DNA from: Lentisphaerales bacterium
GTDB taxonomy: Bacteria > Verrucomicrobiota > Kiritimatiellia > SPBP01
NCBI GenBank assembly: GCA_032123355.1
Contig: JAQBFM010000215.1
Span: forward strand, 9,325 to 73,324
Direction of reading: 5' to 3'
Length of the DNA stretch: 64,000 bases
Positions 24,888 through 52,982 of this stretch are shown here, in pieces. The notes under the pieces are model-generated. The model was not told where the DNA came from, ran no database searches, and saw only the letters and a list, made by a program, of their open reading frames with translations. A program made the position numbers and the translations under genes. How positions within the stretch are numbered: the stretch's first letter is position 1; every line of letters starts with the position of its first letter.

Positions 24888-24949
24888 GCCAACCAGTTTG
24901 CCAGAAAGCCGGTGCTTCGACAAGAACCTCTGCTGACATTCTGGGGGGA

Positions 24950-25195
24950 CTGCAGGACCACGGGACAACGGGACTACGAACCACGGATGAACACGGATGC
25001 GAACTGCAAGTGTGGGCCACGAATCGGCAGAAACCCACGCCCCGTCCCGTCAGGCCAGAGACCCCTCCCGACGGGCCGCTTCCCTATTCTGTTTCCTTTG
25101 TGGCTTTTGTGCCTCTTTGTGGCTATCGACAGTATCGGCGTCTATCTGCGTTCATCGGCGGTCGCTTTCGAATGTCTCGGGCGGGCAGCTCCGCA
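24950..25195. repeat. Mosaic intergenic repeat region (modules M7, M6)
   Basis: GGACTACGAACCACGGATGAACACGGAT occurs here and, inverted, at 29548-29585. GTGCCTCTTTGTGGCTATC...ATCGGCGTCTATC.GCGTTCATCGGCGG also occurs at 38950-39010 and partly at 29650-29700. Confidence 0.7.
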
Positions 25196-25197
25196 GA

Positions 25198-26385
25198 TTA
25201 CCAGGCTCGGCAGACAAGACCCTTGAGATAGGCGGCTTCAGGAAAGCCGAGGGCCACCGGATGATCAGCCGCCTGGCTCAGGAACCGGATAATCTGCGCG
25301 TCGCGCCCGGCATCCACCGCCGCATCAGCAACAATCTTCTGAAACAACGGCTGTTGCACGTAACTGGAACACGAAAACGTGAAGAGCACACCACCCGGCT
25401 TCACAAGCTTGATACCCAGCAGATTGATGTCCTTGTATCCCCGCGCCGCGCCGGGCACGCCGCTGGCCGACGACGCGAACCTTGGCGGATCGAGAATCAC
25501 AATGTCGAACTGGCGCCGTGAGTCCCTGTACTTCCTGAGGACCTCGAACACATCGCCTTCAACGTTCGCCACGAGCCCGGGCTCTAAGCCGTTAAGCTCC
25601 ACGTTGCGTGCAGCCAGGGCGAGCGCTTCGCCGGAGACGTCAATATTCGTTACATGCGATGCGCCTTCTTTCAATGCCCTGACACCGAACGCGCCGGTGT
25701 AAGAAAAGCAGTTGAGCACCTCGGCGCCGCCCGCGAACCCGGCAACCATCGCGCGGTTGTCGCGCTGGTCAAGATAGAAACCCGTCTTCTGCCCATGTCG
25801 AACATCCACCAGCAATCGAGCCGACCCCTCGGTTATTTCGACGGCATCCGGTGGTTCCTTGCCTGAGAGCAGACCCTCGCGCGGCTGGAGCCCCTCTTTC
25901 TGGCGTGCGTCGTCGGACGATCGCTCAAAGAGCCCGGCAACCGAACCTGTGTCGGCGAGAAACTCAACAATAGTATCCCGCCAGTACTCCGCGCCTGCAG
26001 ACAGGAATTGACAGACTCCGAATTCTCCGTACCGGTCAACCATGAGCCCGGGAATGCCGTCCGACTCCGAGAAGACCAGGCGGCAAGCCGTCGTATTGCA
26101 CTCGCGAAGCAGGCTGTCCCTCGCCTCAACAGCACGACGCAGACGGGCTTGAATGAACTCCGCGCAGATCTTCTCCCCTTCCTGGAAGGACCATGCTCTT
26201 ACGCGGATCTGCGAACCGGGCGAGTAGGCGCCCGCAGCCAGCCATTCGCCGCCAGCCGATAATACATCCACTGTTTCGCCGGGGCTTATGGATCCATCGA
26301 CGCGGCCTATCGCACCTTCAAAAATCCACGGATGCCGACGACGGAGCGACTTGTCGCGGCCTTTTCTGAGAGTTACCGAGCCCAT
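25198..26385 (-). CDS. rlmI: Class I SAM-dependent rRNA methyltransferase (RlmI/RlmK-like, PUA + MTase)
   Basis: N-terminal PUA-like region (RHPWIFEGAI...). MTase motifs VLNCFSYTGAFG and DIVILDPPRFA. Confidence 0.8.
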   Translation of the reverse strand: MGSVTLRKGRDKSLRRRHPWIFEGAIGRVDGSISPGETVDVLSAGGEWLAAGAYSPGSQIRVRAWSFQEGEKICAEFIQARLRRAVEARDSLLRECNTTACRLVFSESDGIPGLMVDRYGEFGVCQFLSAGAEYWRDTIVEFLADTGSVAGLFERSSDDARQKEGLQPREGLLSGKEPPDAVEITEGSARLLVDVRHGQKTGFYLDQRDNRAMVAGFAGGAEVLNCFSYTGAFGVRALKEGASHVTNIDVSGEALALAARNVELNGLEPGLVANVEGDVFEVLRKYRDSRRQFDIVILDPPRFASSASGVPGAARGYKDINLLGIKLVKPGGVLFTFSCSSYVQQPLFQKIVADAAVDAGRDAQIIRFLSQAADHPVALGFPEAAYLKGLVCRAW

Positions 26386-26493
26386 GTGCCAGTATCCGAT
26401 GGTTCGACCCGTGCCGGGAACTACCCACGACCTAGAAGGTACGGGTCCGTCCTTCGCGGCCCTTGCGTCCTTCTGTAGAAGAAACGCTTCCGC

Positions 26494-27261
26494 CTATGAT
26501 CGATACTCGGCAACGATTCTCTGCCTTGCAGCCCAGAGAATGCCGCGCTTCACTATCTCGAGGGCTTCCGGCACGTCGAAATCGGCGGCCACATGCCCCA
26601 GCGAAGTGTAGAACACGCGGCCCTTGCCGTATATCCGCTTCCACACCGCCGGCATGACCGTGTTCCGAACCCACGGCACACCGCCATGTCGTCCGCTGAA
26701 AGTCGTTGTGGCAATCACTTCATTGCCCGGATCAGTATGCATGTAGTACTGCTCGGAGCTCAAACTGAAATCGGCGAGGTTCGCGGTAATCGGATCTTTG
26801 CGATCAGTAATATTTACTTTGTACCGGACTATGCCGCCGGGATGCACGACCCACTGCCCGCCGGTCATGAACTGATACTCCGTGTCGTTCCGAAACGAAT
26901 CGCACATGCCCCCATGCCAGCCTGCCAGCCCGATCCCACTCCGGATCGCGTCGCGAAGCGCCTGGCTCTGCTCTCCCGTGATCTGACCCATGGTCCATAT
27001 GGGGACGATCACCGACTGACGCGCAATCAGTTTCTTATCGAGATATGTATCGAGAGAATTGGAAACCGTGACTGTGAACCCCCTGGACACAAGCCATGTC
27101 TCGATAATGCGCGCGCATTTATCGGGTTCGTGTCCTTCCCACCCGCCCCACACGATCAACGCCGATCTCTTTGCCGATTTCTTTGCGGCTCTCTTTACTG
27201 ATTTCTTTACCCGTTTCTTTGCCGGTTTCTTCATTGTGCCCTTGTCTCCCTTGTCGGCCAA
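26494..27261 (-). CDS. ThuA-domain protein (DUF1037) with Lys-rich N-terminal extension
   Basis: ThuA core [13 protein letters not shown] ... GQWVVHPGG ... YTSLGH. The 5' ~70 nt are built from a 12-bp tandem repeat encoding [23 protein letters not shown]. An alternative in-frame TTG start at ~27165 would remove the extension. Confidence 0.7.
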
Positions 27262-27745
27262 CCCGTCCCGTTGCGTCAGAACGACCTCTCGATAAGAATT
27301 GCGCGGACACTACATCCGCACGTGGGTCCGGTCAAGCTTTGTCCTTGCAGTCACAAATATGGTGACGTATTCGTTGCGGCTCAGCCTGAGGCTTCGCCCT
27401 ACCTTTCACCGTACATGCAGGTCGAGGTGTCCTGCCCTGAACCGTGGCCGGAGGGGCGTAGCGAATTGTGCGTGGCCACGGAACGCGAAGCAGGAATAGC
27501 AGCACTATGTCGATGCAGCGTGACGCTGGCCATGCGCAATACAGTAGCCAAAACGCCTACAGTATTGTTGAAACTGATCTAGCTCGGCATATTTCATGAG
27601 TGGTTCTACCTGCGTGCGTCAGGCAGGTCACGGCCGTTGCCCGCGTTTCCGGCTGCCCCATCTTCGGGAGCAGTTTGGGCTTTCTCGTCAGGCATCAGCG
27701 GATTAGAGTATCGAGCTTAATCATTCCAGGGGAGAAAATCATACG

Positions 27746-28984
27746 ATGCAAACATCACTCAGAATCGCGGCAGTTTCGGTAACGGCATGCCTTATGGCTG
27801 TCCAACTTGTTGCAGCGCCTCAGCTCTTGATGCGAAGCGTTGTGGAGCCCGACTGGCCGAGTTGGCGAGGACCGAACCACAATGGCATATCCCCGGAAAA
27901 GGACTGGAACCCGGCGGCACTTGCTGACGGCCCGAAGAAGTTGTGGCAGGCGAATGTCGGAAAAGGCTACTCGGCCGTGGCCGTGAAGGGCGAGAACCTC
28001 TATACAATGGGAAATAGCGAAGACCAGGACACGGTCTACTGTTTCAATGCGGTAACCGGCGCCGAAATCTGGCGTTACTCATACCCGTGCAAGAGCGGCG
28101 ACTTCCCAGGGCCGCGCGCGACGCCCTGCGTTGACGGCAATTCTGTTTATACCATCAGCCGCGAAGGGCTGGTCTTGTGCCTGGATGCGGCCAAGGGCGC
28201 TGTTGTGTGGCAGAAAGATGTCGTCTCTGAGCTGGGCGCAAAGTTGCCGACCTGGGGCATTTCTGGTTCGCCGGTCGTGCATGGCGACATGCTTCTGCTC
28301 AATGTCGGTGAATCGGGCGCCGCGCTGGACAAGAAGACCGGCGACAAGATCTGGGCAAGTGCGCCCGAGACCTGCGGGTATGCCTCACCCGTCGTCATCC
28401 CGTCCCCCATTTCACAGACCGTCCTGTTCTTCGGTGCAAGAGCTCTGCATGTTGCCGATCTCAAGACCGGCGAGAAGCTGCAATCGTACAAATGGATAAC
28501 ATCCTATGACGTAAATGCGCCCGATCCGCTGCCCGTTGGAAATAATCGGGTCTTCATTACGTCCGGTTACGGTAAAGGCAACGCGATGCTGGATATCGGG
28601 AAAGCCACGCCATCTGTTGTCTGGGAACACAAGAAGCTCAGCAGTCATTTCGGAAGTCTCATACTGATCGACGGCTACATCTACGGAAGTGATGGGAATG
28701 CAGGTCGCGGCTCACTGGTATGCCTGAAAGCATCGGATGGCTCGGAACAGTGGCGGCAGAACACCGGTTTATGCTCTATCACTGCAGCAGGAGGACGGCT
28801 GATTGTTCTATCTGAAAGCGGCGACCTGTCCATCGTGGAAGTCAACCCATCTGAATACAAGGAAATCTCGAGCGCAAAGGGGCTGCTCCAGAAGACATGC
28901 TGGACCGCACCAGTCCTGTGTCGCGGTCTCATATACTGCCGCAGGGATAACGGCGACCTGGTCTGCATTGACGTGAGGAAGTAG
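27746..28984 (+). CDS. Secreted PQQ-like beta-propeller repeat protein (second paralog)
   Basis: Signal peptide MQTSLRIAAVSVTACLMAVQLVAA followed by blade repeats with G..IW/VW motifs. Confidence 0.7.
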   Translation: MQTSLRIAAVSVTACLMAVQLVAAPQLLMRSVVEPDWPSWRGPNHNGISPEKDWNPAALADGPKKLWQANVGKGYSAVAVKGENLYTMGNSEDQDTVYCFNAVTGAEIWRYSYPCKSGDFPGPRATPCVDGNSVYTISREGLVLCLDAAKGAVVWQKDVVSELGAKLPTWGISGSPVVHGDMLLLNVGESGAALDKKTGDKIWASAPETCGYASPVVIPSPISQTVLFFGARALHVADLKTGEKLQSYKWITSYDVNAPDPLPVGNNRVFITSGYGKGNAMLDIGKATPSVVWEHKKLSSHFGSLILIDGYIYGSDGNAGRGSLVCLKASDGSEQWRQNTGLCSITAAGGRLIVLSESGDLSIVEVNPSEYKEISSAKGLLQKTCWTAPVLCRGLIYCRRDNGDLVCIDVRK

Positions 28985-29304
28985 CAAGACGTCCGCCGAG
29001 CCTGGTAATCTACGGCTTTAGCTTCTTGCCTTCGGGTGAGGTGGTGTTGGGCTTGCCAGCAGTTCTGCGAGCGGATTTCGCGTGGAGAATGGCAAGACGA
29101 TCCTGCGCGCTCGCGGCGTTCTCTCGGGTCGTGCGTAGGACCTCAAATACCTGACAGGATGAACAGGATGTATTCGATCCTGTAGATCCCGATCAATTGC
29201 AGTTGGTCAACTGCCTTGGTAACAGGGCAGGTGAACAACTGTATCGCAAGGCAACAAGTCCCCGTTCCCGCGATCGTGGCAGGAAGCATTTCGGAATGAA
29301 GATT

Positions 29305-29349
29305 CTGGAGATCCAAAGGCTGCGGCATGCCGCAGCTTTGGATCTCCAG
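29305..29349. terminator. Near-perfect 45-bp palindrome between convergent genes (candidate bidirectional terminator)
   Basis: CTGGAGATCCAAAGGCTGCGG-CATG-CCGCAGCTTTGGATCTCCAG forms a ~20-bp stem with one bulge. It has no T-tract. Confidence 0.4.
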
Positions 29350-29399
29350 ATCAGATCGACAAGATAATCGTGCCTGGCCCGCAAGGCGGGGACCATCCT

Positions 29400-29696
29400 G
29401 TTATCCTGTCAGGCATTTCTTCTTTGTGCCTTTTGCGCCTCTTTCCTCCAGAGGCGGACAAGTGTGGCTGGTCTTGCTGGAGAAGCGGCGCGGCGGGAGG
29501 GCTTGTGGCCTGGCGGGACGTTGTCTCTCACTCACACACTTGCAGTTCCCATCCGTGTATATCCGTGTTCATCCGTGGTTCGTAGTCCTGCTTGCCCCGC
29601 GTTTATCGCGGGGTAGTCCTTCGCGGTCTTCGCGTCCTTCTGTAAAAGAAAGGTATTCATCGGCGTCTATCGGCGTTCATCGGCGGTTGCAGGTCT
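29400..29696. repeat. Mosaic intergenic repeat region (modules M6, M7 inverted, M8)
   Basis: It shares modules with 24950-25195, 26455-26492 and 38880-39010 in mixed orientation. Confidence 0.7.
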
Positions 29697-31985: not shown

Positions 31986-32163
31986 GGGCAGCGTGAGCGG
32001 AACGGCGTGAGCACCGCGCGGGCCGCGAGTCACGTGATGGTGCAATGGAAACATGGCAGGAGCATAGCAGAACCCCTGAATCTTGTACAATGGTGAGAGA
32101 GTGACTGGCAATGAAGAATCGGCGCCGGGGTTCAGGGTTCAGTGTCCGGTCCCTGTAGGTCCT

Positions 32164-32423
32164 CAATCGTCCTCGTCCTCGTCCTCAGTGAGCGTAGCGA
32201 ACGGTCCTCGTCCTCGATTTTTCACTGGTCACGTTTCCCGCCAGGAGCAGGTCCTGGTGGGTGAAGGCGCTGGGGAACGTTGCGACCGCGCCGGGCTCGG
32301 CATTGCCCGACGTAACCATGAACGAAGCGAAGGCGAAGTCGGGACGGCCCGCCGCACCCGAACTGCCGAGGACGAGGACCGTTCGTCACGCTTCGCGTTC
32401 CTCACTGAGGACGAGGACGATTC
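32164..32423. repeat. MITE-like element with ~55-bp terminal inverted repeats (TIRs; module M1)
   Basis: The left arm CAATCGTCCTCGTCCTCGTCCTCAGTGAGCGTAGCGAACGGTCCTCGTCCTCG is the reverse complement of the right arm CGAGGACGAGGACCGTTCGTCACGCTTCGCGTTCCTCACTGAGGACGAGGACGATTC. The ~150-bp core contains an M2-like segment. Confidence 0.7.
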
Positions 32424-32520
32424 ATGATGTTCCTGACACCAGAAACCTGAAGCCTCCTGGGCTATACGCACAAAAAAAACGCCGGTGGCTGTTGCCACCG
32501 GCGTCTTTTCTTACGTCTGT

Positions 32521-34902
32521 TTAGAACTCTGCGCCGGCCATGACGCGACCAAGCACCGTATCTGCCGTGGTGAACGAAACACCGGCGTTAACCGTCACGC
32601 GATTCTTCGCATGCTTCTCCAGTTTCAGGAGATGTGTTGCATTTACACCAACCGCAGTCTCACCTTCATAGTAGGCTGTGCCAACCATGACGGCGGTCTT
32701 GCCCGGGGCTGACGGCTCAAGCAAGGTATCGAGGGCCGCAGCTGCTGCAACGCCGCTGTAAGCCTTCTTGCCAATCTTGTCCATGTTTGCACCCAGGTCA
32801 TCAATCGCCTGCTCGTTCTCGGCGTTTTGCGCGTCGAGTGCGCTGATCATGTCTTCCTGCTGGTTGATCACCGTGGCATGCTGGTTGATCACCGAGGCCT
32901 GCTCATTGACGTATTCGACGGTCTTGTTGATGACGGTTGAATTGTTGTTGATGGCCGCGGCATGTGACACAACGGTCACCAGCCCGCCAATCTGATCCAT
33001 GTTGACCGCATCGGTGCCATTTACGCCCGGTGCCACGTTGACAAGCCGGCGTTCGCTGCCAGCCGCGCCAACACTCACCGTGTTGTCTTCGGTCGCTATA
33101 CTGCCGTTACCGAGCGCCACGCTGTTGTTACCTGTGACGAGCGCGTTATCGCCAAGGGCCGTGCTGGTGGCTCCCAGTGCCTGGGCATTAACGCCCACCG
33201 CGACAGAGGACAGGGCAACCGCACCCTCGCCGATTGCAATAGAACCGGCGGTTGCTGCATAGGAGAACCTGCCGATGGCTACCGAGCCCTGGCCTGAGGC
33301 GTCTGATTTTTCACCCATGGCAACTGCGTCCTTTGCCGAATATGAGCGACGCCCGATGGCAACACTGTTATGACCTTCGGCGTATGCCTCCCCACCGACT
33401 GCGACTGAGAAGCGACCTGCTGCTTCCGCGTCACTGCCGATAGCCGTGGCGTAATAGTGGTCTGCCAATGCGTGGGTACCAACCGCAAGACTCTCTTCGT
33501 CCAGAGCTTCAGCGCCCTCGCCGATGGCCGTGGCATGGTAGTCGTCGGCGAGCGCCCATGCGCCAACTGCTGTGGAGTAATCTCCCCTGGCATCGGACTT
33601 ACGGCCCAGAGCCGTCGACTCGTAGCCCTTGGCCTTCGCACCTTCGCCAAACGCTGCCGTGCCATCGTCTCTTGCTTCAGAGTTACGACCTACAGCTGTG
33701 CTGTTATTTCCTTCGGCGGAGGAGTCCGCACCAACGGCTGTTGCGAAGCGACCGTCAGCATATGAGTTGTTACCCAGAGCCGTCGCACCGTCACCACTGG
33801 CTTCGGAATCCTCACCAACCGCCGTGCTCTCATCCCCACTGGCAATGGAAGATTCACCCAATGCTGTGCTCTGCGATCCGCTGGCCACGGAATCCTCGCC
33901 CAGCGCCGTTGAACCGAATTCTCCGGAAGCCTCTGCGTTCCGACCGACCGCAGTCGCTGCACCAAACCAGCTAGCAGCATTCGCGCCCTGTCCGACCGCT
34001 GTGTTTCCACCAGCCAAGCTGCTCGCATTCGCATCCTGACCGAGGGCCGTTGCACCTTCGCCCAATGTAGACGCATTCGCGTTCTGGCCGAAAGCTGAAG
34101 AGTTTTCGCTGCGCGCCGACGCGTCCTGACCGACTGCGGTGGCGTTATCATTCCCGGGGAAGATCCAGAAACCAGCGGTTCCGGCTTCTGCGCCTTCACC
34201 GACAGCTACTGAACTATCTCCACTGGCCCGTGAGTCCTGGCCGAGTGCCGTGGTCTCTTCACCAGTTGCACGCGCATCTTCGCCGAGTGCTGTGGAAGCA
34301 TACCCTGTTGCACGCGAGTCCTGACCGACTGCCGTGGCGTCTTCCTCATCCGCACGAGCATCCTGACCGACTGCCGTGCTGTCTTCGCCCGTGGCTTCAG
34401 CATCCTGGCCGACAGCCGTTGTTCCGGTGGCGGTAGCTTCTGCCCGAGCGCCCAGTGCTGTGGAAGAGTCCGCAGTAGCCTGTGACTGGCCACCCAAGGC
34501 GGTGCTCATGGTTCCGTTTGCATCCGACTGAGTTCCTATCGCAGTACTGGCGTTTCCGTCCGCGAGAGACTGATTTCCAACCGCTGTCGCGTTATTGGCC
34601 GTTGCATTCGCCTGAGCTCCCAACGCCGTGGTGTAGTTTGCTGTGGCCTGTGACAGGCCGCCCAAAGCGGTGCTTTGGGTTCCGTTGGCATCCGATAGAA
34701 CTCCTATGGCGGTACTGGCGTTCCCGCTAGCGAGTGCCGCGTTACCACCAGCGACAGAATTTGCGCCGCTCGCTGTTGCGGTGCTGGGACCAGAATCTAC
34801 CAGCGCCTGCCCGTATGTGCACGGCACCATGGCCATGACTGCGAGGGCGACAACGCCCGAGATCATGTTGATTACTGCCCGACGATTATTTCTACCGATC
34901 AT
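32521..34902 (-). CDS. Trimeric autotransporter adhesin (TAA; YadA-like, type Vc secretion)
   Basis: It has dozens of 14-aa YadA-head-type repeats (NSTAVGxxAxAxGxxSTALG) and a neck-like motif RRLVNVAPGVNGTDAVNMDQ. A coiled-coil stalk and a C-terminal YadA anchor (KKAYSGVAAAAALDTLL...AVGVNA...VNAGVSF) complete it. The start is uncertain (34992, 34902 or 34866). Confidence 0.8.
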   Translation of the reverse strand: MIGRNNRRAVINMISGVVALAVMAMVPCTYGQALVDSGPSTATASGANSVAGGNAALASGNASTAIGVLSDANGTQSTALGGLSQATANYTTALGAQANATANNATAVGNQSLADGNASTAIGTQSDANGTMSTALGGQSQATADSSTALGARAEATATGTTAVGQDAEATGEDSTAVGQDARADEEDATAVGQDSRATGYASTALGEDARATGEETTALGQDSRASGDSSVAVGEGAEAGTAGFWIFPGNDNATAVGQDASARSENSSAFGQNANASTLGEGATALGQDANASSLAGGNTAVGQGANAASWFGAATAVGRNAEASGEFGSTALGEDSVASGSQSTALGESSIASGDESTAVGEDSEASGDGATALGNNSYADGRFATAVGADSSAEGNNSTAVGRNSEARDDGTAAFGEGAKAKGYESTALGRKSDARGDYSTAVGAWALADDYHATAIGEGAEALDEESLAVGTHALADHYYATAIGSDAEAAGRFSVAVGGEAYAEGHNSVAIGRRSYSAKDAVAMGEKSDASGQGSVAIGRFSYAATAGSIAIGEGAVALSSVAVGVNAQALGATSTALGDNALVTGNNSVALGNGSIATEDNTVSVGAAGSERRLVNVAPGVNGTDAVNMDQIGGLVTVVSHAAAINNNSTVINKTVEYVNEQASVINQHATVINQQEDMISALDAQNAENEQAIDDLGANMDKIGKKAYSGVAAAAALDTLLEPSAPGKTAVMVGTAYYEGETAVGVNATHLLKLEKHAKNRVTVNAGVSFTTADTVLGRVMAGAEF

Positions 34903-35436
34903 ACTGTATCTCCCTTTTTGCCCTTGTTGAAACACCGTCTCTAATTCGGTCCTTCTTTGAGCGCAACCCGCGCCCAATTTGCTGAAAAACACGTAGGGGT
35001 AACACTCTCACGGAGCAGTCTGGGGCTCAACAATAATTCTTTTTTTTTTCTGATCCTGCCGGTCCCGGACAGGCATCTGCGGCCGTCCTTTGTAATCAAC
35101 TGCAATTCAAAGAGTTAGAGCGCCCCGAGCTGAACACGGGCCCAGGGCATGACATGACCTCCGGGCACGTGCCCTGGTCGGGCCAGCAGAGCCCCCCTGT
35201 TTGCGCAGATTCACATACTGGACAGTTCACTGCTTTATGGGACAGCCCTCACGGCCGCACAATACTGAAGGGCGAAGGGGGCAGAACAAGAAGTTCATCG
35301 GAGGTTGATCGGAACGTGGTTGACTACACGTGAGGGGCAACGGTACGTTCTGTTGCGAGAAATGCACGCTGGCAAAGGCAGCGGGATCTGACTGACTGCC
35401 GGAGCTTGTATCTGATAAAGAACCATACTACGGGAG

Positions 35437-36735
35437 ATGAAAGTGATGAAAAGCGTATTCGGAAGATTCAGTTGCATGGTGCTGGCCACCGTGTTGGTTG
35501 CCCTGACCTGCGGTGCCGCAGAGGTGGTAAAAGTTTCCCCGCTCATCGCGGCATGCGAGCGCGGCAGCATGAAGCAACTGAAGAAACTGGTGGCGGAAGG
35601 TGTGGACGTCAATGTCTCAACGGATGCCAAAGGCCGGACTGCCCTGATGATCGTGGCCGACAAGGGAAACTCTTCTCTCGTCACTTACCTTCTTGCTAAC
35701 GGCGCAACCCTGGAAACTGTCGACGCCCGCGGCAACACTGCGCTCACACTCGCAAGCTCGAAGGGCCATAAAAGAGTGGTCACTTTGCTGCTCGACGCGA
35801 GGGCCAATCCCAATCTCGCCAGCGGCAAAAGTGCGACCCCACTCATGGCGGCAAGTATGGGCGGACACACTGCCGTCGTGAAAGAGCTTCTTGCTACGAG
35901 GGCGGAACCCGACGCTGCCAACGCATACGGCGGCACTGCGCTCATGGTTGCGAGCGAGAGCGGACACGGGGCAGTGGTGAAAGAGCTTCTCATCGCAAGG
36001 GCGGATCCGAATCTTGCCAACAAGGGAGGATGGACTTCACTGATACTGGCAAGCATGAAGGGCCACAGCAAAGTCGTGAAGCTTCTGCTCAAAGAGAGGG
36101 TGAACCCCGATGCCGCCGCAGAAAACGGCAGCACCGCGCTGATGGTCGCAAGCGAGAACGGCCACGCCGACACGGTCAAGCTGCTGCTCGCCGCGAAAGC
36201 TGATCCCAACCTGGTCAACAAGGGCGGTGCGACCGCGCTCACCGTCGCAAGCGTGAATGGCCACAGCAAAGTGATCAAGCTGCTGCTCGCCGCGAAAGCT
36301 GATCCGGATGTCGTCATGAACGGCGGGGTGACCTCACTGATATTCCTGAGCCAGCGCGGCAATACGGAAGCGGTCCAGGCACTCCTGAAAGTCGGGGTCA
36401 ATCCCAACATAACCGACAATCGCGGCATGACCGCGCTCATACCTGCAAGTCGGAACGGCCATACCTCGGTGGTGAAACTGCTGCTCGCCGCCCGGGCCGA
36501 CCCGAACATCGCCAACGTGGACGGGGTGACCGCACTAATGGCCGCAAGCGATAATGGCCGGACTGATGTGGTCAAGCTGATCCTCGCCGCCAGGGCTAAC
36601 CTGAATCCAGTCAGCAAGGCCGGGCTTAACGCGCTCGGCTATGCCAGGCTGAACGGACACGAGGGCGTCGTCAAAACGCTGCTTGCTTACGAAGCAAAGA
36701 AGCTGCGCGCGAGCCAGAAACGCGTGCGGAGGTAG
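35437..36735 (+). CDS. Secreted ankyrin-repeat protein (~12 ANK repeats)
   Basis: A signal peptide is followed by 12 tandem 33-aa repeats of the form G.TALM.AS..GH..VVK.LL.A.A.PN. Confidence 0.8.
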   Translation: MKVMKSVFGRFSCMVLATVLVALTCGAAEVVKVSPLIAACERGSMKQLKKLVAEGVDVNVSTDAKGRTALMIVADKGNSSLVTYLLANGATLETVDARGNTALTLASSKGHKRVVTLLLDARANPNLASGKSATPLMAASMGGHTAVVKELLATRAEPDAANAYGGTALMVASESGHGAVVKELLIARADPNLANKGGWTSLILASMKGHSKVVKLLLKERVNPDAAAENGSTALMVASENGHADTVKLLLAAKADPNLVNKGGATALTVASVNGHSKVIKLLLAAKADPDVVMNGGVTSLIFLSQRGNTEAVQALLKVGVNPNITDNRGMTALIPASRNGHTSVVKLLLAARADPNIANVDGVTALMAASDNGRTDVVKLILAARANLNPVSKAGLNALGYARLNGHEGVVKTLLAYEAKKLRASQKRVRR

Positions 36736-37325
36736 AAGAAGGTTTCAGGTGTCAGGTTTCAGGAAACTGCCAGTGTGTGGGAGTATGGGAGTGTCGGAGT
36801 GCCAGGGGTGTGACCAGAAATCCTAATCGTCCTCGCCTGCCCGACGAAGCCACGCAGGGCGAAGTCGGGTCCTCAGTGAGGAACGCGAAGCGTGACGAAC
36901 GGTCCTCGCGTGCCAGGCCGTAGTCCCCACCTCGAAGAGAGTCGGGGCGAAGTCGAATCCTCCAACCGAGAAGCCATAACATCGAATGAAGAACCGAGGA
37001 CGAGGACCGTTCGCTCCGCTCACTGAGGACGAGGACGATTGAGGCCTGCGGGAACGGGACGCGGAATCTGGAGCTTGGATGCTCCTTGTGTCACTCCAAT
37101 TCCCAATCCTGAACCCTGAACACTGAACTCTGGCAGTTCCACTGCCCCCCGAAACCTGACACCGACAAAGTTCGCGACAAGGCTCGCGACAAAGTCTCCA
37201 TTCATCCATCAACCTTCATTCCCCATTCGTGTCCATTCGTGTGATTCGTGGGCAGAAGTTCTTCTTCGCGTCCATCAGCCTTCAACCTTATTCCTGACAC
37301 CTGAACACTGGCCGCCTCTGGTGGC
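36736..37325. repeat. Composite palindromic mosaic element (modules M4rc-M3rc-M1rc/M2 ... M1 ... M4)
   Basis: GGTTTCAGGTGTCAGG and GGGAGTATGGGAGTGTCGGAGTG sit on the left. GAGGACGAGGACCGTTCG...CACTGAGGACGAGGACGATT and CTGAACCCTGAACACTGAACTCTG sit on the right. Confidence 0.65.
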
Positions 37326-38825: not shown

Positions 38826-38859
38826 TTTCGGTTCTCCCTTTTGTTCAGGTGTCAGGTTT

Positions 38860-39130
38860 CGGAAACCGGAGGTTCTCCGCTTATCCATATCCGTGTCCAT
38901 CCGCGGTTCAACAAATCATTTCTCTGTGTCTCTGCGCGAGAATCTCTGCTTGTGCCTCTTTGTGGCTATCAAGATCGGCGTTCATCGGCGTCTATCGGCG
39001 GTTGCATTTCGGTTCACTCCCCCCACACTCCGACACTCCCATACTTCCACACACAATCAGTTCCCTGACGAAGTCCCTGAGCTTGTCGAACGGGCGATCT
39101 CTGCTCCCCTGCGCCTCCGCGGGAGGCATC
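38860..39130. repeat. Mosaic intergenic repeat region (M4rc, M7-like, M6, M3)
   Basis: CACACTCCGACACTCCCATACTTCCACACACAATCAGTTCCCTGAC (M3) also occurs at 42195-42250 and, inverted, at 36768-36806. Confidence 0.65.
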
Positions 39131-39149: not shown

Positions 39150-39839
39150 TTACTTCTGCCCGTAGTATGCGCCCGGTCCATGCTTACGCGAAAAATGTTT
39201 GTCGAGTATGTGCTGTGGAATCGGGCCAACCTTCGGATCGAGTTGCACGGTGGCAAATGCCATCTTCGCCACCTCTTCCAGAGCCACGGCGTTCTCGACC
39301 GCACCTGCGGGATCCCCACCCCACACGAACGGCCCATGATTTGCCGCGAGTACGCCGGGTGCATGTGAACGGTCCAACTTCGCAAAGCGCTCGACGATGA
39401 CCCGACCGGTATTGATTTCATAGCCCGCATCGACTTCTTCTTTCGTCAAAGACCTCGTAATCGGCACTTCGCCGTAAAACAGGTCAGCATGCGTCGTGCC
39501 CAGGCACGGAATCGGACGGCATGCCTGCGCAAAAGCAGTAGCGTACGTGCTGTGTGCATGCACAATCCCACCGATGTCAGGCCAGGTCCTGTACAGCAGC
39601 AGATGCGTTGGTGTGTCTGACGACGGCTTATAATCACCCGCAACAACATTTCCCTCGAGATCGACAGCCACCATCTTCTCGGGAGTGAGCGAATCATACG
39701 GGACGCCGCTGGGCTTGATGACGACCAGCCCGCTGTCCCGGTCTATTCCGGAGACATTTCCCCAGGTAAGAACTACGAGCTCATGGCAGACAAGAGCACG
39801 ATTGGCCTCACAGACCTGTTCTTTCAGTTGTTCGAGCAT
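39150..39839 (-). CDS. araD: L-ribulose-5-phosphate 4-epimerase (class II aldolase/adducin family)
   Basis: Motifs GNVSGIDRDSGLVVIKPSG and HAHS resemble AraD. Confidence 0.85.
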   Translation of the reverse strand: MLEQLKEQVCEANRALVCHELVVLTWGNVSGIDRDSGLVVIKPSGVPYDSLTPEKMVAVDLEGNVVAGDYKPSSDTPTHLLLYRTWPDIGGIVHAHSTYATAFAQACRPIPCLGTTHADLFYGEVPITRSLTKEEVDAGYEINTGRVIVERFAKLDRSHAPGVLAANHGPFVWGGDPAGAVENAVALEEVAKMAFATVQLDPKVGPIPQHILDKHFSRKHGPGAYYGQK

Positions 39840-39982
39840 CTTACTTTCCTTAATACCCGCTTACGGATGGCTTTCTTGACCGGATAACCCCGCCTTGCGA
39901 GACAGGCACAATATCATCATGTTTTTCAATATCCAACCCCGCAGAGCGGGGCAAGTATCCAATTTATCCCGCCATGGCGGGA

Positions 39983-40204
39983 CAAGGAATATCCAAGTTT
40001 CAAGGTTAACACATGAATCGTAATCGTCCTCGCCTGCACGACGAAGCCACGAAGGGCGAAGTCGGGTCCTCAAATAGGGTGTGAAACAGAAATCAAGACG
40101 TCACGAGCTACGGCCGGAAAGGAGAGTGCGGTTCCCTTGGTCATTGGATTTGGGTGTTGGATATTGGATATTCGTTTTCGTTCTTTCATAGAATTCTTGA
40201 CACT
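39983..40204. repeat. MITE-like element Y (TIRs GGAATATCCAA / TTGGATATTGG) carrying nested M1/M2 modules
   Basis: The ends match 52783-52920 (~90% identity over ~30 bp on the left and ~75 bp on the right). The internal segment differs and here contains AATCGTCCTCGCC...CGACGAAGCCACGAAGGGCGAAGTCGGGTCCTCA. Confidence 0.7.
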
Positions 40205-40230
40205 ACCATTCTTCCCCCAGAACCCGGCGG

Positions 40231-41925
40231 TCAGCCTTTTCGTGCACGGTCCCGGATGCCGATCAGCTTCTTCATTGCACCATTGAGTTTGCCCCTGAAT
40301 CGCGGAGTTCCGAACGCATCATGCATATCCTTATACATAGCGTACAGCTCAGCATAGGCCCTGGCATGTGCCTTATTCGGCTTATAAACCTTCGATTCCA
40401 CGCCTGCCATACGCTTCTGGGCCGATCCGGTGTCGTTATACACGCCGCCTGCAACGGCCCCGAATATGGCAGCGCCCAGTGCACAGGCCTGGGGTGACCG
40501 GCTGATCTTCATGGACCGATTGAAGACATCGGCATAAATCTGCATCAGAAGTGCGTTCTTTTCGGCGATTCCGCCGCAAGTAACCACTTCCTTTACCTTC
40601 ACGCCATATTCCTCGAACCGGTTAATGATGGTAAGGGCGCCGAACGCGGTTGCCTCAATAAGGGCGCGATAGACCTCCGGTGCACTCGTATGCAGAGTCT
40701 GCCCGATGAGCAACCCGGTAAGGAGCGGATCGACCAGGATTGTCCTGTTGCCATTATTCCAGTCAAGCGCAAGCAGGCCGCTTTCGCCCGGCTTCAATTT
40801 TGCAGCAGCCCGCGACAGGTTCACGTGCGGATCGCCTTTCGAATACTGCGGCGGACACAGACTGTTCACAAACCAGTTGAATATATCGCCCACCGCCGAC
40901 TGCCCCGCTTCAAGACCATACATGCCGGGCACAATCGAACCCGGGACGATTCCGCAGACCCCGGGAATATCCTTAAGCTTCCTGCCAAGCGACGAAACCA
41001 TCATATCGCAGGTTGATGTCCCGATGATCTTTACCAGCGTGCCGGGCTTCACGCCTGACCCAACGGCGCCGTAGTGCGCGTCGAACGCGCCGACTGCCAC
41101 CGGTATACCCGCAGGTAATCCCACTTTCCTTGCAACGGCCGGCACAAGACGGCCGGCAACCTGGTCGGAAGCCAACGCCTTTCGATACAGCCGGCTGCGC
41201 AGCTTCGCGAGGTCCGGCGAGAGCTTCTTCAGGAACGAGACTGACGGCAACCCGCCCCACTCTTCATTATACATCGCCTTGTGCCCCGCAGCACACACAC
41301 CGCGCGCCATCTTCAGCGGATCAGTGTTACCGGTGATGTAGCCTGGCACGAAATCGCACGCTTCCACCCAGGAATAAGCGGCCTTGAAGACGTCCGGCGC
41401 CACATTCCGGCAATGCCAGACCTTCGACCAGAACCACTCCGAGGAATAAGTCATCCCACACTTCGCCAGGTACGGCACCCCGCTCTTCCGGGCAATCTCC
41501 GTGATCTTCGCCGCTTCCTCGTGGCCGGTATGATCTTTCCAGAGCCAGGCATGGGCGTTCAGGTTTCGCTTGAACTTTGCCGTCATCGCCAGCGGCACAC
41601 CCTTGCGGTCGACCGGTATCGGTGTCGAGCCCGTGGTGTCTATGCCTATGCCGACAACCCGGTCGGGCCGGAACCCCTTCTCTTTCCCGGCGCGCTTGAC
41701 CGCCGCCGCAACTGAAACAAGAAAACCGCTGATGTAGTCTGCAGGATTCTGCCTCGCGAGATTCGGATCTTTGGGATCCAGCAGAATGCCCGCCTTCCCA
41801 CTGGGATAGTTGTATACATGCGTGCCGAGTTCCTTGCCGTTGTCGACATCAACAACAAGTGCACGCACACTGTTGGTGCCGTAGTCTACTCCGATCGAGA
41901 ACCTTTTGCCTGACGTCTTGCTCAT
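40231..41925 (-). CDS. araB: Ribulokinase (FGGY carbohydrate kinase family)
   Basis: The N-terminus FSIGVDYGTNSVRALVVD is followed by the FGGY N- and C-domains over the full length. Confidence 0.85.
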   Translation of the reverse strand: MSKTSGKRFSIGVDYGTNSVRALVVDVDNGKELGTHVYNYPSGKAGILLDPKDPNLARQNPADYISGFLVSVAAAVKRAGKEKGFRPDRVVGIGIDTTGSTPIPVDRKGVPLAMTAKFKRNLNAHAWLWKDHTGHEEAAKITEIARKSGVPYLAKCGMTYSSEWFWSKVWHCRNVAPDVFKAAYSWVEACDFVPGYITGNTDPLKMARGVCAAGHKAMYNEEWGGLPSVSFLKKLSPDLAKLRSRLYRKALASDQVAGRLVPAVARKVGLPAGIPVAVGAFDAHYGAVGSGVKPGTLVKIIGTSTCDMMVSSLGRKLKDIPGVCGIVPGSIVPGMYGLEAGQSAVGDIFNWFVNSLCPPQYSKGDPHVNLSRAAAKLKPGESGLLALDWNNGNRTILVDPLLTGLLIGQTLHTSAPEVYRALIEATAFGALTIINRFEEYGVKVKEVVTCGGIAEKNALLMQIYADVFNRSMKISRSPQACALGAAIFGAVAGGVYNDTGSAQKRMAGVESKVYKPNKAHARAYAELYAMYKDMHDAFGTPRFRGKLNGAMKKLIGIRDRARKG

Positions 41926-42039: not shown

Positions 42040-42290
42040 CTCGCACACGTAAATTTCTCAATCTTCATCCGTCATCCTTCCGCCTTAAGATTGGCGCGTA
42101 TTAGTATGGATGTCATGTTGTGATTTCCGTTTGACACCTTAGTTCGAGGACGAGGACCGTTCGCGCCGCTCACTGAGGACAAGGACGATTTCTCGTCACA
42201 CCCCCACACTCCGATACTCCCATACTCCCACACGCAATCAGTTCCCTGACACCTGAACACTGAACTCTGAACACTCCCCACACACGTCAG
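42040..42290. repeat. Mosaic intergenic repeat region (M1-M3-M4 arm)
   Basis: CGAGGACGAGGACCGTTCGCGCCGCTCACTGAGGACAAGGACGATTTC, M3 and CCTGACACCTGAACACTGAACTCTGAAC. Confidence 0.65.
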
Positions 42291-42496: not shown

Positions 42497-42677
42497 GTCT
42501 AGCTCCGGTTTCGTTTGTTTCTCATGGCCAGGGTCTTGCGCAAGCCTGAAAAGATATTCAATCGCGACACCCTTGTCAACGTGCCTATGGGTTCGTGCTC
42601 TTGCAAACCGTCGTCAAAAAGTCCATAATAAGCGCGTCAGGGATGCCGAAGCAGGTGTATGAGAAGGCGGGCACGCG

Positions 42678-44213: not shown

Positions 44214-44290
44214 CAGTGCGTCGGACTTAGCCCCTCCTTCGTCGGAGCAAAGTCCTGGCCCTGCTAGTTAGTTTTGCTTCGCAAAACTGA
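44210..44290. repeat. REP-like element R1 (copy b, inverted, degenerate)
   Basis: CTGCTAGTTAGTTTTGCTTCGCAAAACTGAT is the reverse complement of the R1c head. The hairpin is imperfect and sits immediately after the peptidase stop. Confidence 0.55.
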
Positions 44291-44588
44291 TGCGGAAGAT
44301 CGGGGATCCGCTTGACCCGGACTTGATCTGGCGGGGCCTTATCCTACCGGAATTGCCAACAGGTTACGTTCATTCGCTAGGAGTCTGTCGGACTTTCGCC
44401 ATGCGAAAGTCCTCCATACTCCTCCTGAGTTTTGTAAGTGTTTGCACAATAAGCTCTTGCAGAACCAACCAAGAAAGTTCCGGAAAATCCGAGGTCTGGT
44501 TTCTTCTATATATAGTAGGGATGGAGTCTGCGGGGGTGGGCCTTGCATCCATTCGAACGACGAGGGGACGGCCGTATCGAGGCTTATT

Positions 44589-45245: not shown

Positions 45246-45310
45246 GACATTTCCAGCATTACGCGCCGGTGCCAAGGCAGTTGCCGAAGGAACGATCGAA
45301 AAAATGAAGA

Positions 45311-45383
45311 ATCAGTTTTGCGAAGCAAAACTATCTAGCAGCGTTAAGACTTTGCGTTAGACTCAAAGTCTCAACGCTGCTAG
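45311..45383. repeat. REP-like element R1 (copy c)
   Basis: ATCAGTTTTGCGAAGCAAAACTAT is followed by a ~19-bp stem CTAGCAGCGTTAAGACTTT / AAAGTCTCAACGCTGCTAG. Confidence 0.65.
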
Positions 45384-45904
45384 TGCTGATGCAACTTGCG
45401 ATGTTCTTCGGCATGCCTGGCCGATGGGGTATGCGAGGGCGCGGTTGACTGCGCGGAGGCCCATGCAATGGTCTGCTGGAGAATCTCCCAGCGGTGCCGG
45501 GAATTCCAGTGTCGCTCCCGCTTCTGCTCTTCCCGCACCTTGAGTTCGTCCAATGTCATGTCAGTCGCCCTGTACTGCTTTGCGAAGCCCATCCAGTCGA
45601 AACCTGCGTTGGCCCGACTTCTCCAGGGCTTCCTCCGCTCTCAGCATATCCTCATCCGAAAGACCAAGATATTCGACGTCCGAGGCCGTCTTTCCCCTGT
45701 ACGCTCTGGCCCGACATTCGTTCCAGTCACCCAGCCCCTTAACCCTCCTGAAGACATCAATTGCTCCCAAATCGCTGGTCAAGCAGAACACGGTTTGTTT
45801 CGCCAACCACCTCGGTTGTCGCTGCGCAACCGGTCCCCACTCGTGGTCGGATTCGCCCCATTCCGCGCCAAGCCCATAGTCGCAACCGGTTATCAACGCC
45901 TGCT

Positions 45905-48139: not shown

Positions 48140-48168
48140 GTTTCCATCTCCCGCGTCGGCAACCTGCG

Positions 48169-51111: not shown

Positions 51112-51371
51112 CGTACGGTTTCACTCCCCGTTCCGGGCCCGTTCCGGGCCGTGTGTTGCGACGGATTGAGTCTCAAATCCTTAAAGCGTGATCGGCGGCA
51201 AAGTGAGCCGATTCCGCCCATATTCCGGTCATTCTAGCACCCGTTTGCCGCAATGTCGTGTACAAAAGAAGGCTCCAGTATTGACTTCCAGATGACTCAT
51301 GTGTAACATGCATAGATTCGGAAAGATAAACTTGGTTCTGAAGCCTCTTTTTAGAAAACGGGAGAAACATC

Positions 51372-52373
51372 ATGAAGAATCACTTCTGCAGAGCGTCTGT
51401 GATGGCAGCTTTGCTGTTTGCGTTGGTAGCTTCTGCCTACGGCGGCGGCGCAGGACGGATAGTGCGGGAAAGAAAAGGTGGCGGACCTGACGAATCGCCA
51501 GGCGCAATTGAGCTGGCAATCGACGTCGCTTTCTCCAAGCAGGTCGGCGAAACGGTGACCGACCAGAATGGAACGTTCTACCATGTTTTCGGAATGGTCT
51601 TCTACGAGGACCTGGTCTATCCGCCCCAGTATTGGGGTGTGTTCCCGCTGTACTTCTTCGGTGAGGAAGTAGGCATCAACGTGAACGTTGCCAACCTGAG
51701 CGCGCAGAAGGCTGCATTCCTGCTTCGGTGCGCAGCCTATTGCCTGCGCACCGACGGCAGCAATGGCGCCCAGCTTCTTGCGCCGACCGACAGGGTTGTC
51801 GCGATCGCCAAGAACGGCTCGGCGAATATTGATTCCTCGTTCGTCGCCGGTTATGTCGAGGGCGCGGAATCCGGACTCGACCGGTTCATCGTCAAGGCGC
51901 TCGATCAGAATGGATCGGAAAGCGACGGGCATGTTATTGGCGGAGAACTGCTTCTCAACCCTGCCAACAATTCCGACATGGAATTCACGCTGACTCTTCC
52001 GGACGACAGCACAATTACGCATGACGACTTGCAAGACGGTTATCCCGGTTATGCCGGCGCAGCAGTGGCCATCCATTTCAAGCCAAAGGGTAATGGGAAC
52101 CAGAACGCACTGATCGTCGACGGCCAGTCTTATCCCCTGTCGAACGCCGAGACGTACGACTTTCTTTCGGACTCCATGACAGTCAACCTCTACAATGCCG
52201 GCAACGGTAACACGATGGGCCAGTGGTGGATTGCAGTTGATGCCACTGATGCGACGATTATCTGTTCCGGTGAAGAGGCGCCCGGCCTGATAATGTCCAA
52301 GGAAGCCATCTTCTGTCCGCCGGAGTATAATGGCGAAGCCATGCAGGCTGTAGAGAACGTGCTCGCGCAGTAG
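51372..52373 (+). CDS. Secreted hypothetical protein
   Basis: Signal peptide MKNHFCRASVMAALLFALVASAYG. No recognisable domain. Good coding periodicity. Confidence 0.5.
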   Translation: MKNHFCRASVMAALLFALVASAYGGGAGRIVRERKGGGPDESPGAIELAIDVAFSKQVGETVTDQNGTFYHVFGMVFYEDLVYPPQYWGVFPLYFFGEEVGINVNVANLSAQKAAFLLRCAAYCLRTDGSNGAQLLAPTDRVVAIAKNGSANIDSSFVAGYVEGAESGLDRFIVKALDQNGSESDGHVIGGELLLNPANNSDMEFTLTLPDDSTITHDDLQDGYPGYAGAAVAIHFKPKGNGNQNALIVDGQSYPLSNAETYDFLSDSMTVNLYNAGNGNTMGQWWIAVDATDATIICSGEEAPGLIMSKEAIFCPPEYNGEAMQAVENVLAQ

Positions 52374-52782
52374 CAGCGCCTGCGGTTTAGGGGTGTCAAG
52401 CGTTCTCGGATCTTGCCCCCTTATCCTTGATTATCCGTCACTTTCCGGCTCTTCACGGAAGTGTGTAGTCAGGGAGTTCTATACGACTTGTACAACCATA
52501 CTCAGAACGGGGCAGACTCAGGATGGAAGTCGATCGATTAAGTGTATCCGAGTAAGTGACGCGTTTAAGGGTGCGACGAAGAGTGCGTTTTCCGCCGGAG
52601 GCTGCCTGCCCGCCTCTGGAGGGGATCCGCCTTTGGCGGAAAGCGTGAGCTTCGCACTTCTTACACTTTCTCGTTCACCCCGACATTCGTCGGGATGCAA
52701 GCGCTTAACCGTACTCTTAACCGCCACTTTTACTCGGTTACGCTTAGACGACCCTCTTGATCGATCCAATCTTTCATGCCAA

Positions 52783-52920
52783 CAAGGAATGTCCAGGTTT
52801 CAAGGTTAGTTCCCCGCCTGACAGCGCGGCCGGGAAGCAGAATGCAGTCTCCTTGGTCATTGGATTTGAGTGTTGGATATTGGATATTCGCTCTCATTCT
52901 TTCATAGAACTTTTGACACT
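52783..52920. repeat. MITE-like element Y (short copy)
   Basis: CAAGGAATGTCCAGGTTTCAAGGTTA ... CCTTGGTCATTGGATTTGAGTGTTGGATATTGGATATTCGCTCTCATTCTTTCATAGAACTTTTGACACT. Homologous to 39983-40204. Confidence 0.7.
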
Positions 52921-52982
52921 GCCGACAAGAGTGGGCTGAAGGACGGAAGGAGGTTTGGGGCCGGTTTCCCCATCGATCATGC

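Follow-up and report, generated by a model that had tools for sequence, protein, structure and literature searches.

Repetitive extragenic palindromic (REP) sequences, bacterial interspersed mosaic elements (BIMEs) and REP doublets forming hairpins (REPINs), with their REP-associated tyrosine transposases (RAYTs), are known from Enterobacteria and Pseudomonas, and REPs tagged with GTAG or CGTC have been reported in Planctomycetes-Verrucomicrobia-Chlamydiae (PVC) bacteria too (PMC3733652, PMC2817692, PMC3116915). Here we analysed 64,000 nt from the chromosome of a Lentisphaerales bacterium (assembly GCA_032123355.1, contig JAQBFM010000215.1, positions 9,325 to 73,324), referred to as the window and numbered from its first base. 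Many of its intergenic spacers are assembled from a shared set of short modules, designated M1 to M8. These modules are dispersed repeats with a turnover faster than that of the flanking genes, brought about by gain, loss and replacement of blocks and by slippage between internal direct repeats. We consider it probable that the spacers are a mosaic of several small, non-coding and non-autonomous repeat families, resembling REP/BIME, BOX or miniature inverted-repeat transposable elements (MITEs) in kind; they would be spread as hairpin DNA through a putative trans-acting enzyme together with recombination.

The modules have much in common with the REP/BIME-REPIN systems. They are short, multi-copy, dense extragenic repeats in both orientations, clustered into mosaics with linker motifs; their complete forms, like REPINs, are hairpins of two inverted units; they lack target-site duplications, their copies far outnumber any coding partner, and they are long-lived in lineages. 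Several features set them apart, however. REPs are imperfect palindromes of 20-40 nt, whereas M6 and M7 are triple direct repeats and M1 consists of two direct repeats around a 17-nt core. No GTAG/CGTC tag is found at the unit ends here, GTAGTCC occurring beside M7 but not at a unit end. There is no RAYT in the window, nor a recurrent Y1-like family beside about 210 element-bearing loci, and the only gene embedded between arms, seen for the M6 class in other phyla, encodes a PD-(D/E)XK protein of the GxxExxY type and not an HUH tyrosine transposase. Furthermore, M1 is near-identical across many species, whereas REPs are usually lineage-specific.

Two other systems are close in design. BOX elements of Streptococcus pneumoniae are composed of boxA, boxB and boxC in a fixed A-Bn-C grammar and are confined to one genus. 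Like BOX, the modules are intergenic, hairpin-forming and drawn from a few types in variable number, but there are at least eight types and the syntax is loose (M1 then M4, M3 then M4, word block then decamer block). In the cyanobacterium Nostoc, Elhai and colleagues are said to have described, in 2008, short tandemly repeated repetitive (STRR) sequences and small dispersed repeats, for which we know of no transposase. Intergenic tandem words of heptamer scale, tiny mobile-looking units nested in other repeats and a mosaic result are common to both cases; the phylum and the sequences are different, the words here form inverted arms and hairpins, and one class is tied to a gene family.

Shared modules recur in the intergenic spacers

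Self-comparison of the window by blastn gave 20-odd significant matches between spacers, 22-99 nt long, 82-100% identical and on both strands. Exact 16-mers recurring more than 200 nt away account for 9.2% of the non-coding but 0.25% of the coding bases, a 37-fold enrichment of repeats in non-coding DNA. When module counts were set against shuffled expectation, all seven modules named in the initial annotation, which had been made from the sequence without database searches, proved to recur well above chance. The M1 core GAGGACGAGGACCGTTCG is present in four exact copies and one with three mismatches (0.12 expected), M2 and M3 in two copies each (0 expected), with an additional inverted copy of M3 at 83% (36759-36821), and the decamer pattern ATYSGYG-N3-ATYSGYG, which covers M6 and M7, in 13 matches (0.21 expected). 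M4 has three copies in the window and M8 two. Most modules are about three tandem copies of a 7-12-nt word. The tandem-word make-up had escaped the initial annotation, as had the 94-97-nt module M5 (40111-40207 and 52827-52923, 87% identity) and a complete hairpin element at 29150-29414.

Spacers in the module-bearing stretch are unusually long (228-752 nt), and modules are found whether the flanking genes are convergent, divergent or in tandem. The repeated fraction is 8-34% in nine spacers between 24.9 and 53 kb and zero in the spacers 27262-27745 and 34993-35436, the latter lying between the divergent adhesin and ankyrin genes. Eleven module-bearing regions had been announced and ten listed; nine of these do share modules, while 27262-27745 shares none (0% repeated). 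The spurious peptide VS[EAGV]ANGPRPR... does indeed recur and represents the translation of reverse-complemented M1. The module spacers have no repeat-spacer periodicity, which bears out the view that they are not clustered regularly interspaced short palindromic repeats (CRISPR).

Module spacers change faster than the genes around them

Contigs and loci used for comparison carry L-numbers. In the contig of a sister species (L103), AraD is 92% identical and the genes are 84-89% identical in DNA; the same module vocabulary is present there, in other spacers and in other orders. M2 stays in the spacer between the FGGY kinase gene and araD, while the 97-nt module, two mini-hairpins and the GCCTGTCTCGCAAGGCGGGG hairpin differ in presence or position. 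The gene-proximal ends of the araD-fucI spacer are conserved, namely the hairpin after araD and the ribosome-binding site with a CTGAAC run before fucI, and between them the sequence has been exchanged: the window has about 190 nt with M3 and M6, L103 about 90 unrelated nt. On the 3' side of fucI, L103 contains 1.26 kb of modules matching seven different spacers of the window, and this run leads straight into the orthologue of the BamB-like gene 27746-28984. Synteny is thus interrupted at module-rich spacers.

Strains of the same species, with flanking DNA 99.5-99.9% identical, differ by whole blocks. At 42105..42106 the window lacks a hairpin-rich block of 184 nt that is present in four strain contigs (L001-L004) and in the sister species. 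Its junction has an ambiguity of only 1 nt and no target-site duplication; several assemblies break inside the block, and no other copies of it were found. A segment of about 374 nt (29010..29383) is shared by the window and L288, whereas four metagenome-assembled genomes (MAGs; L289-L292) have about 16-20 unrelated bases in its place between flanks that are 99.7-99.9% identical. L005 carries other DNA in place of the spacer downstream of fucI, and its M1 core has been lost, exactly between the two GTCCTCGTCCTC repeats of that core. Contigs of independent assemblies repeatedly end inside module spacers. The comparison of orthologous spacers in relatives, proposed by the initial annotation, has thus revealed presence/absence polymorphism (184 nt at 42105; 29010-29383).

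The annotation had named two findings that would speak against a dispersed system, confinement of the modules to the window and syntenic conservation as regulatory DNA. The same modules are found in the sister species and in many other genomes, and in the sister species they stand at different loci. This redistribution, together with the block differences between strains, excludes both local duplication and conserved regulatory DNA.

The 184-nt block resembles the palindrome-associated transposable elements (PATEs) of the insertion sequence (IS) family IS200/IS605 in having subterminal hairpins at both ends, no duplication and TTAG on the left, PATEs being inserted 3' of a fixed tetra- or pentanucleotide, and its absence from the window, compared with other strains and the sister species, looks like precise excision. 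Unlike PATEs it was seen as a single copy, no TnpA or TnpB was seen and the left hairpin loop is unusually large; the other modules do not fit this type.

Two further observations concern recombination. In some strains (L005 3256-4119; L290 and L291 1-575), identity drops to 96-97% over the 3' part of bamA and the spacer next to it, as against 99.5-99.9% elsewhere, which suggests an imported recombination tract. L005 also joins position 37022 of the window to 30172 at a 12-nt near-identity, reflecting either a deletion of 6.85 kb or a chimeric contig.

These data are pertinent to a passive origin, in which slippage, template switching and homologous or microhomology recombination between low-complexity spacers would have produced the mosaic and no dedicated mobilising enzyme would be involved. 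The modules are short tandem words, L005 lost its M1 core by slippage between direct repeats and shows a junction at near-identity, there are strain alleles that are replacements and not clean insertions, the bamA tract indicates imported DNA, and neither target-site duplication nor transposase was found, all of which such an origin would account for. Slippage cannot, however, yield the near-identity of the 45-nt M1 and the 28-nt M6 across orders and phyla described below, and it leaves unexplained both the strongly conserved, non-repetitive 17-nt centre of M1 and the constant tie of M6-type arms to one gene family. The 184-nt block, moreover, was gained or lost precisely. We therefore regard an exclusively passive origin as improbable.

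Positions of the modules relative to genes

The window is ordinary chromosome of a Lentisphaerales MAG, and identical proteins at NCBI carry that name. No transposase, RAYT or integrase is encoded within the 64 kb. The module-bearing part begins with the gene of a BamB-like protein (23736-~24900, minus strand), followed by those of a PUA-methyltransferase (25198-26385, minus), ThuA (26494-27261, minus), a second BamB-like protein (27746-28984, plus), BamA (29697-~32054, minus), a YadA-type trimeric autotransporter adhesin (32521-34992, minus), an ankyrin protein (35437-36735, plus), a fucI-like isomerase of 499 aa (37326-~38825, minus), AraD (39150-39839, minus) and an FGGY kinase (40231-41925, minus). 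S8 proteases, an ERCC4 nuclease and others are encoded 3' of the FGGY kinase region. The fucI start had been placed at 38900 and lies at ~38825 instead.

M1 was located by self-comparison and core count. M1a (32161..32224, minus) is the left arm of an inverted M1 pair upstream of bamA, and the right arm is M1b (32365..32424, plus), a variant with a centre 11 nt longer. In the convergent ankyrin/fucI spacer, whose 590 nt are filled with modules, a copy of M1b (36869..36908, minus) identical to 32373-32412 at 40/40 positions is accompanied by a copy of M1a (36987..37044, plus), and another M1a copy (42141..42192, plus) is found in the divergent spacer between the FGGY kinase and S8 protease genes. 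M2 is present at 36819..36875 (plus), where it holds a small hairpin CCCGAC..GTCGGG, and, 95% identical, at 40016..40072 (plus), the copy kept at the orthologous place in the sister species. M3 consists of period-8 CCCAYACT words (39020..39069, plus) and M4 of period-7 CCTGAAC words (37108..37132, plus). The two are contiguous as M3 + M4 at 42201..42269 (plus) and, in inverted orientation, as M4 + M3 at 36744..36821 (minus); further M4-like runs lie at 37286-37310, 32128-32142 and 38845-38862. M5, a module of 97 nt with ATTGGAT words (40111..40207, plus), matches, together with 39982-40008, the second M5 copy in the 52.8-kb locus (52782..52923, plus; 52782-52808 and 52827-52923, 87-93%). M2 sits in the segment between these two blocks of the first M5 locus (40009-40110).

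The M6 copy at 25107..25165 (plus), 33 nt past the stop codon of the methyltransferase gene, is composed of a CTTTGTGGC block and then a triple decamer ATCGGCG-N3. Other M6 copies are found 7 nt past the stop codon of bamA (29659..29690, plus) and between araD and fucI (38950..39005, plus), the last of which is missing from the orthologous spacer of the sister species. In all three the triple decamer, ATCNGYG-N3 ending in GGCGG(C/T), is apparent (25134-25165, 29659-29690 and 38974-39005). M7 has a decamer block of ATCCGTG-N3 followed by GTTCGTAGTCC (24962..25014, minus), a second copy (29535..29597, plus) and weaker relatives at 38886-38910 and 37223-37250. M8 occurs at 26442..26484 and 29609..29651 (both plus). 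A loose syntax is apparent: M3 is contiguous with M4, another word block precedes the M6 decamer block, and a CTGAAC-type run is found 0-70 nt after M1, in the window and in two other genomes.

The positions are relevant to the possibility that the modules are functional cis-elements selected in place, that is, promoters or operators, terminators, mRNA-stabilising hairpins or small RNAs serving the flanking genes; shared cis-regulatory cassettes had been offered as one interpretation in the initial annotation. The three M6 copies all point the same way and follow closely on stop codons on the transcribed strand, the sister species has kept the gene-proximal spacer parts after araD and before fucI, and the M1 pair is predicted to form a very stable hairpin in the bamA leader. 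The interior modules, in contrast, are not conserved in the sister species, and modules were gained or lost between strains with flanks 99.7-99.9% identical. Modules also lie between convergent genes, no M1 orientation bias is evident in a crude tally of 13 scorable copies, and there is neither an excess of promoter- or terminator-like sites in the modules nor a match in Rfam: for the window and canonical copies elsewhere, no family, Acido-Lenti-1 included, matched at gathering score, and no relevant sub-threshold match was seen. The modules had also been placed upstream of the adhesin and ankyrin genes; they are downstream of both instead, and the divergent spacer 34993-35436 has none. A role in place is thus very unlikely to explain the modules.

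The adhesin and ankyrin genes possess in-frame tandem repeats of their own, with periods of 42 nt and 99 nt, which are unrelated to the intergenic modules.

Inverted pairs of units form long hairpins

Single units of M1, M6 and M7 are direct-repeat structures, and hairpins arise only from inverted pairs of units. The inverted M1a/M1b pair (32161-32424, 264 nt) folds as one long hairpin (z = -7.5). A second complete hairpin element, of 265 nt (29150-29414; z = -9.7), has the arms CCTGACAGGATGAACAGGATG and CATCCTGTTATCCTGTCAGG around nested hairpins that include the palindrome 29304-29350. These two are the complete elements of about 265 nt in the window, most other copies being solo or decayed arms.

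Terminal inverted repeats bounding 100-400 nt, as in MITEs, are present at 32161-32424 and 29150-29414, while most copies are single arms. If the modules were classical MITEs, they would be deletion derivatives of DDE-type IS elements, moved via terminal inverted repeats and flanked by target-site duplications. The two elements with long inverted ends, and the presence or absence of some blocks between strains, would be in keeping with this. Target-site duplications, for which the initial annotation had advised a check, were found neither at these two elements nor at the 184-nt and 29010-29383 blocks; TCA at the M1 pair was considered as such a duplication and discarded, as it belongs to M1a itself. 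In addition to the predominance of single arms, the M1 copies that lie 4 kb from each other in L077 have housekeeping genes and no transposase between them, the loci examined show no transposase amid or next to copies that could represent an autonomous IS with the same ends, and no recurrent transposase family accompanies the roughly 210 element-bearing loci. There is thus only a slim chance that the modules are classical MITEs. In essence the MITE-like or REP-like system proposed initially is borne out, the repeats being dispersed, in both orientations, out of synteny, strain-variable and present in many genomes; target-site duplications, paired ends in most copies and an IS-type partner in the window were not found.

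The window also contains a separate family of long near-perfect palindromes (19434-19508, 44247-44291, 45311-45385, 57829-57888, 61276-61331 and 29304-29350). Several are bounded by CTAG (CTAG-N-AGCGTGAGGACTTTGCGTT...), and the sister-species contig has a copy at 4850-4927. They may constitute a REP-like family in their own right.

M1 is shared by PVC-type genomes

A scan with the 18-nt M1 core against one genome per species identified at least 96 loci. Among the matches listed, the whole 45-nt element GAGGACGAGGACCGTTCGCT-N-CGCTCACTGAGGACGAGGACGAT was near-identical in at least 45 loci, all from about a dozen PVC-type MAGs (Victivallales, Lentisphaerae, Kiritimatiellia, Planctomycetota and 'PVC group'), one of which has M1 matches on more than 15 contigs. 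The remaining matches, in Streptomyces and others, are to the 18-mer alone and in coding-like context. M1 was absent from the viral contigs searched. Ahead of the element there is usually a (TCGTCC/TCGTCG)n-TCGTCCTCGA run and a loop of variable length (19-25 nt). For about half of the 47 copies that were folded, the structure of minimum energy is a long stem with the conserved 17-nt CGTTCGCT-N-CGCTCACT as internal loop on the 3' strand. Clustering of open reading frames (ORFs) from the approximately 210 element-bearing loci revealed no recurrent gene next to M1, and the ORF-based tally of its orientation relative to neighbouring genes, crude and limited to 13 scorable copies, showed no obvious bias.

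Most copies in the window fall between 24.9 and 53 kb, but a local segmental duplication or an assembly artefact can be dismissed with near certainty, given that the same sequences recur in independent assemblies of the species, at other loci of the sister species and across dozens of further genomes and metagenomes.

A coding function of M1 was rejected as well. In CT-N-CGCT, the free position corresponds to a synonymous third codon position in one frame per strand, yet loop lengths are not multiples of three, and the ORFs that start from GTG of reverse-complemented M1 are not conserved. Likewise, M1 was rejected as a pair of transposon ends, the inverted copies in L077 enclosing genes for an epimerase, an HtrA-type protease and Hsp20. 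A few hundred nt from M1 in a Victivallales MAG (L055, 476-596), a sub-threshold Rfam match to group II intron domain V/VI was observed (30.4 bits, gathering score 40, E = 0.02).

Decamer arms are widespread and adjoin GxxExxY genes

Metagenomes were scanned for M6 with ATCGGCGTYYATCGGCG, which gave at least 120 loci from soil, peat and sediment samples. At least 117 occurrences are element-like, with three decamers ending in GGCGG(C/T); for 50 of the 117 listed, an inverted decamer arm lies within 170 nt, giving stems of about 30 bp. Sibling word families are found in the same loci: ATCTGCG, ATCCGCG/ATCCGTG (M7 of the window), CTTGGCG, CTCTGTG, AATCCTGT and CACGAAT. Most of the 44 viral matches to the M6 pattern are chance matches in coding sequence. 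Two IMG/VR contigs classed as viral, L253 (1800-2050) and L264 (1190-1450), contain tandem arrays of about 80-nt period, in which each unit has a CTCTGTG/CTCTCCGCG word block and an ATCGGCG block; these are BIME-like clusters. In one public assembly (L111, OBLW0100117153.1; 1700-1747, reverse strand) the contig ends in Illumina adapter (..GTGACTGGAGTTCAGACGTGTGCTCTTCCGATCT) fused to an M6 unit, a case of adapter contamination.

All ORFs of the approximately 210 element-bearing loci were clustered in search of recurrent neighbour genes. The sole informative family to stand out comprises small proteins of TIGR04256 ('GxxExxY protein') / PF13366 (PDDEXK_3). All four complete GxxExxY genes in the loci selected by M6 (L136, L140, L144 and L173) abut decamer arms; a fifth match (L120) is a partial ORF only. 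Two architectures were seen. In one, inverted arms surround the ORF (GGCCGCCGATGAACGCCGATGAACGCGGAT-ORF-ATCGGCGTTTATCGGCGTTCATCGGCGGCC), and in the other a complete hairpin lies ahead of the ORF, its second arm supplying the start codon. Independent sampling from the protein side produced the same arm architectures in L230, L234, L236 and L298. One GxxExxY query had 7020 homologues at E <= 1e-20, the few source-named ones being labelled Bryobacteraceae, and 78 of the 120 best homologues start with an MN[AT]DE-type peptide, which is the translation of ATGAACGCCGATGAACGC.

The locus between fumC and an M20 peptidase gene carries the cassette in L230, a spacer of 18 nt in two relatives (L286 and L287) and other cargo in a closer relative (L283), and the right boundary of the difference is the exact end of the arm. 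Very recent transposition of a GxxExxY cassette was looked for and not found, an identical protein occurring in one context only. The decamer arms in the window have the same triple-decamer structure as the cassette arms in L140, L144, L230 and L298, and identity of the arm pattern is the sole basis of a putative link between the window and GxxExxY genes.

ORF-containing stem-loops are familiar as intervening sequences of 23S rRNA, and sequestration of the start codon in a stem, as in the transposase mRNAs of IS200 and IS10, is a known means of limiting the expression of mobile elements. The GxxExxY ORF similarly lies in the loop of a long stem with its start codon inside the stem, but, unlike the 23S rRNA intervening sequences, the cassettes are located between ordinary protein-coding genes.

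Conservation extends, in L234, L236 and L298, to the loop of about 50 nt (..CAATNATAATNG..TGAGAGGTATTNG..GCACATNNATATTGG) that separates the upstream arm from the arm with the ATG; this loop may be the promoter or leader of the cassette. L236 contains, at ~1300-1380, a truncated second GxxExxY copy (DSLTERVLGAVFEVSNTLGCGFLE) just upstream of the hairpin before the intact gene, which could have been left by a tandem insertion or by cassettes recombining with each other.

Other features of the window

A small CRISPR-like array at 61360-61574 has four copies of TCCGGACCATCCCCACGCGCGTGGGGAAAAC with a 61-nt period; no cas genes were identified elsewhere in the window. An AbiEi/AbiEii toxin-antitoxin pair (12629-14321) lies between direct repeats of 27-30 nt (12363-12392 and 14529-14558). 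This AbiE islet (12196-14558), directly 3' of a tRNA-Arg gene (12196-12272), resembles a small integrated islet with att-like repeats. A direct repeat of 99 nt with 99% identity is found at 14673-14771 in a spacer and at 18754-18852 inside or beside a NUDIX ORF.

Discussion

The mosaic of shared intergenic modules in this Lentisphaerales chromosome is real and in rapid flux. According to the model that we favour, each family is built of about three tandem words of 7-12 nt, and its complete form is two inverted arms folding into a long hairpin. The repeats would be spread or exchanged as hairpin-forming DNA, handled by a structure- or sequence-specific nuclease or recombinase that acts in trans and is presumably encoded elsewhere, and homologous or microhomology-mediated recombination between copies probably adds to the shuffling. 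The M6/M7 triple repeat, phased at 10 bp, and the 17-nt loop that M1 exposes resemble protein recognition sites. Effects on neighbouring genes, such as RNA hairpins or insulation, would be secondary.

For the M6 class a candidate partner can be named. The GxxExxY protein has a PD-(D/E)XK fold, and in Acidobacteria-type contigs the arms flank its gene and supply the ATG; hairpins lacking the gene, and arms standing alone, would on this view derive from the GxxExxY cassette as miniatures. We tentatively propose, as a possibility that is at present rather less than even, that the M6/M7 arms are the ends of an undescribed mobile or selfish cassette, with the GxxExxY nuclease as autonomous partner, that the hairpins without a gene and the single arms found in Acidobacteriota, PVC bacteria and other soil phyla are its miniatures, and that M1 is a second family of this kind.

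Several results weigh against hairpin repeats being moved by a trans-acting enzyme. Neither a target-site duplication nor an unambiguous element end was found for any module. Neither the window nor the 280 kb of PVC loci contained a transposase, RAYT or GxxExxY gene, and GxxExxY genes were absent as well from those strain and sister-species contigs that were examined for them; the trans-acting partner in the lineage of the window is hence purely inferred. Polymorphisms between strains are as often replacements as clean insertions or deletions, so that recombination fits as well as transposition. Two of three folded window spacers fold no better than shuffled controls (z = -1.2 and -1.65). Finally, all 10 places with an identical GxxExxY protein share one context.

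In the literature searchable here, exact-sequence and keyword searches found no description of the repeat sequences, and the GxxExxY family is given as of unknown function, with 'multiple transfers' but nothing on flanking repeats. The M1 family and the decamer arms with the GxxExxY cassette thus appear to be undescribed in that literature.

Much work has been done on dispersed intergenic repeats of Proteobacteria and little on those of other groups, and the window presents a rich multi-family mosaic in Lentisphaerota. Module spacers coincide with rearrangement and assembly breakpoints; since the repeats mark assembly breaks, synteny breakpoints and strain indels, they are relevant to the quality of MAGs and to comparative genomics of PVC and soil bacteria. 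Two of the families, M1 and the decamer arms, reach far beyond the genome of the window, and the near-invariance of M1 across many PVC species implies that a trans-acting recognition system is conserved or that horizontal spread is frequent. If GxxExxY proteins do mobilise or process the hairpins, the very large PF13366 family would gain a function and a new pair of autonomous and miniature elements would be defined. GxxExxY would then be a structure-specific nuclease propagating hairpin repeats, analogous to the RAYT/REPIN system but with an unrelated enzyme.

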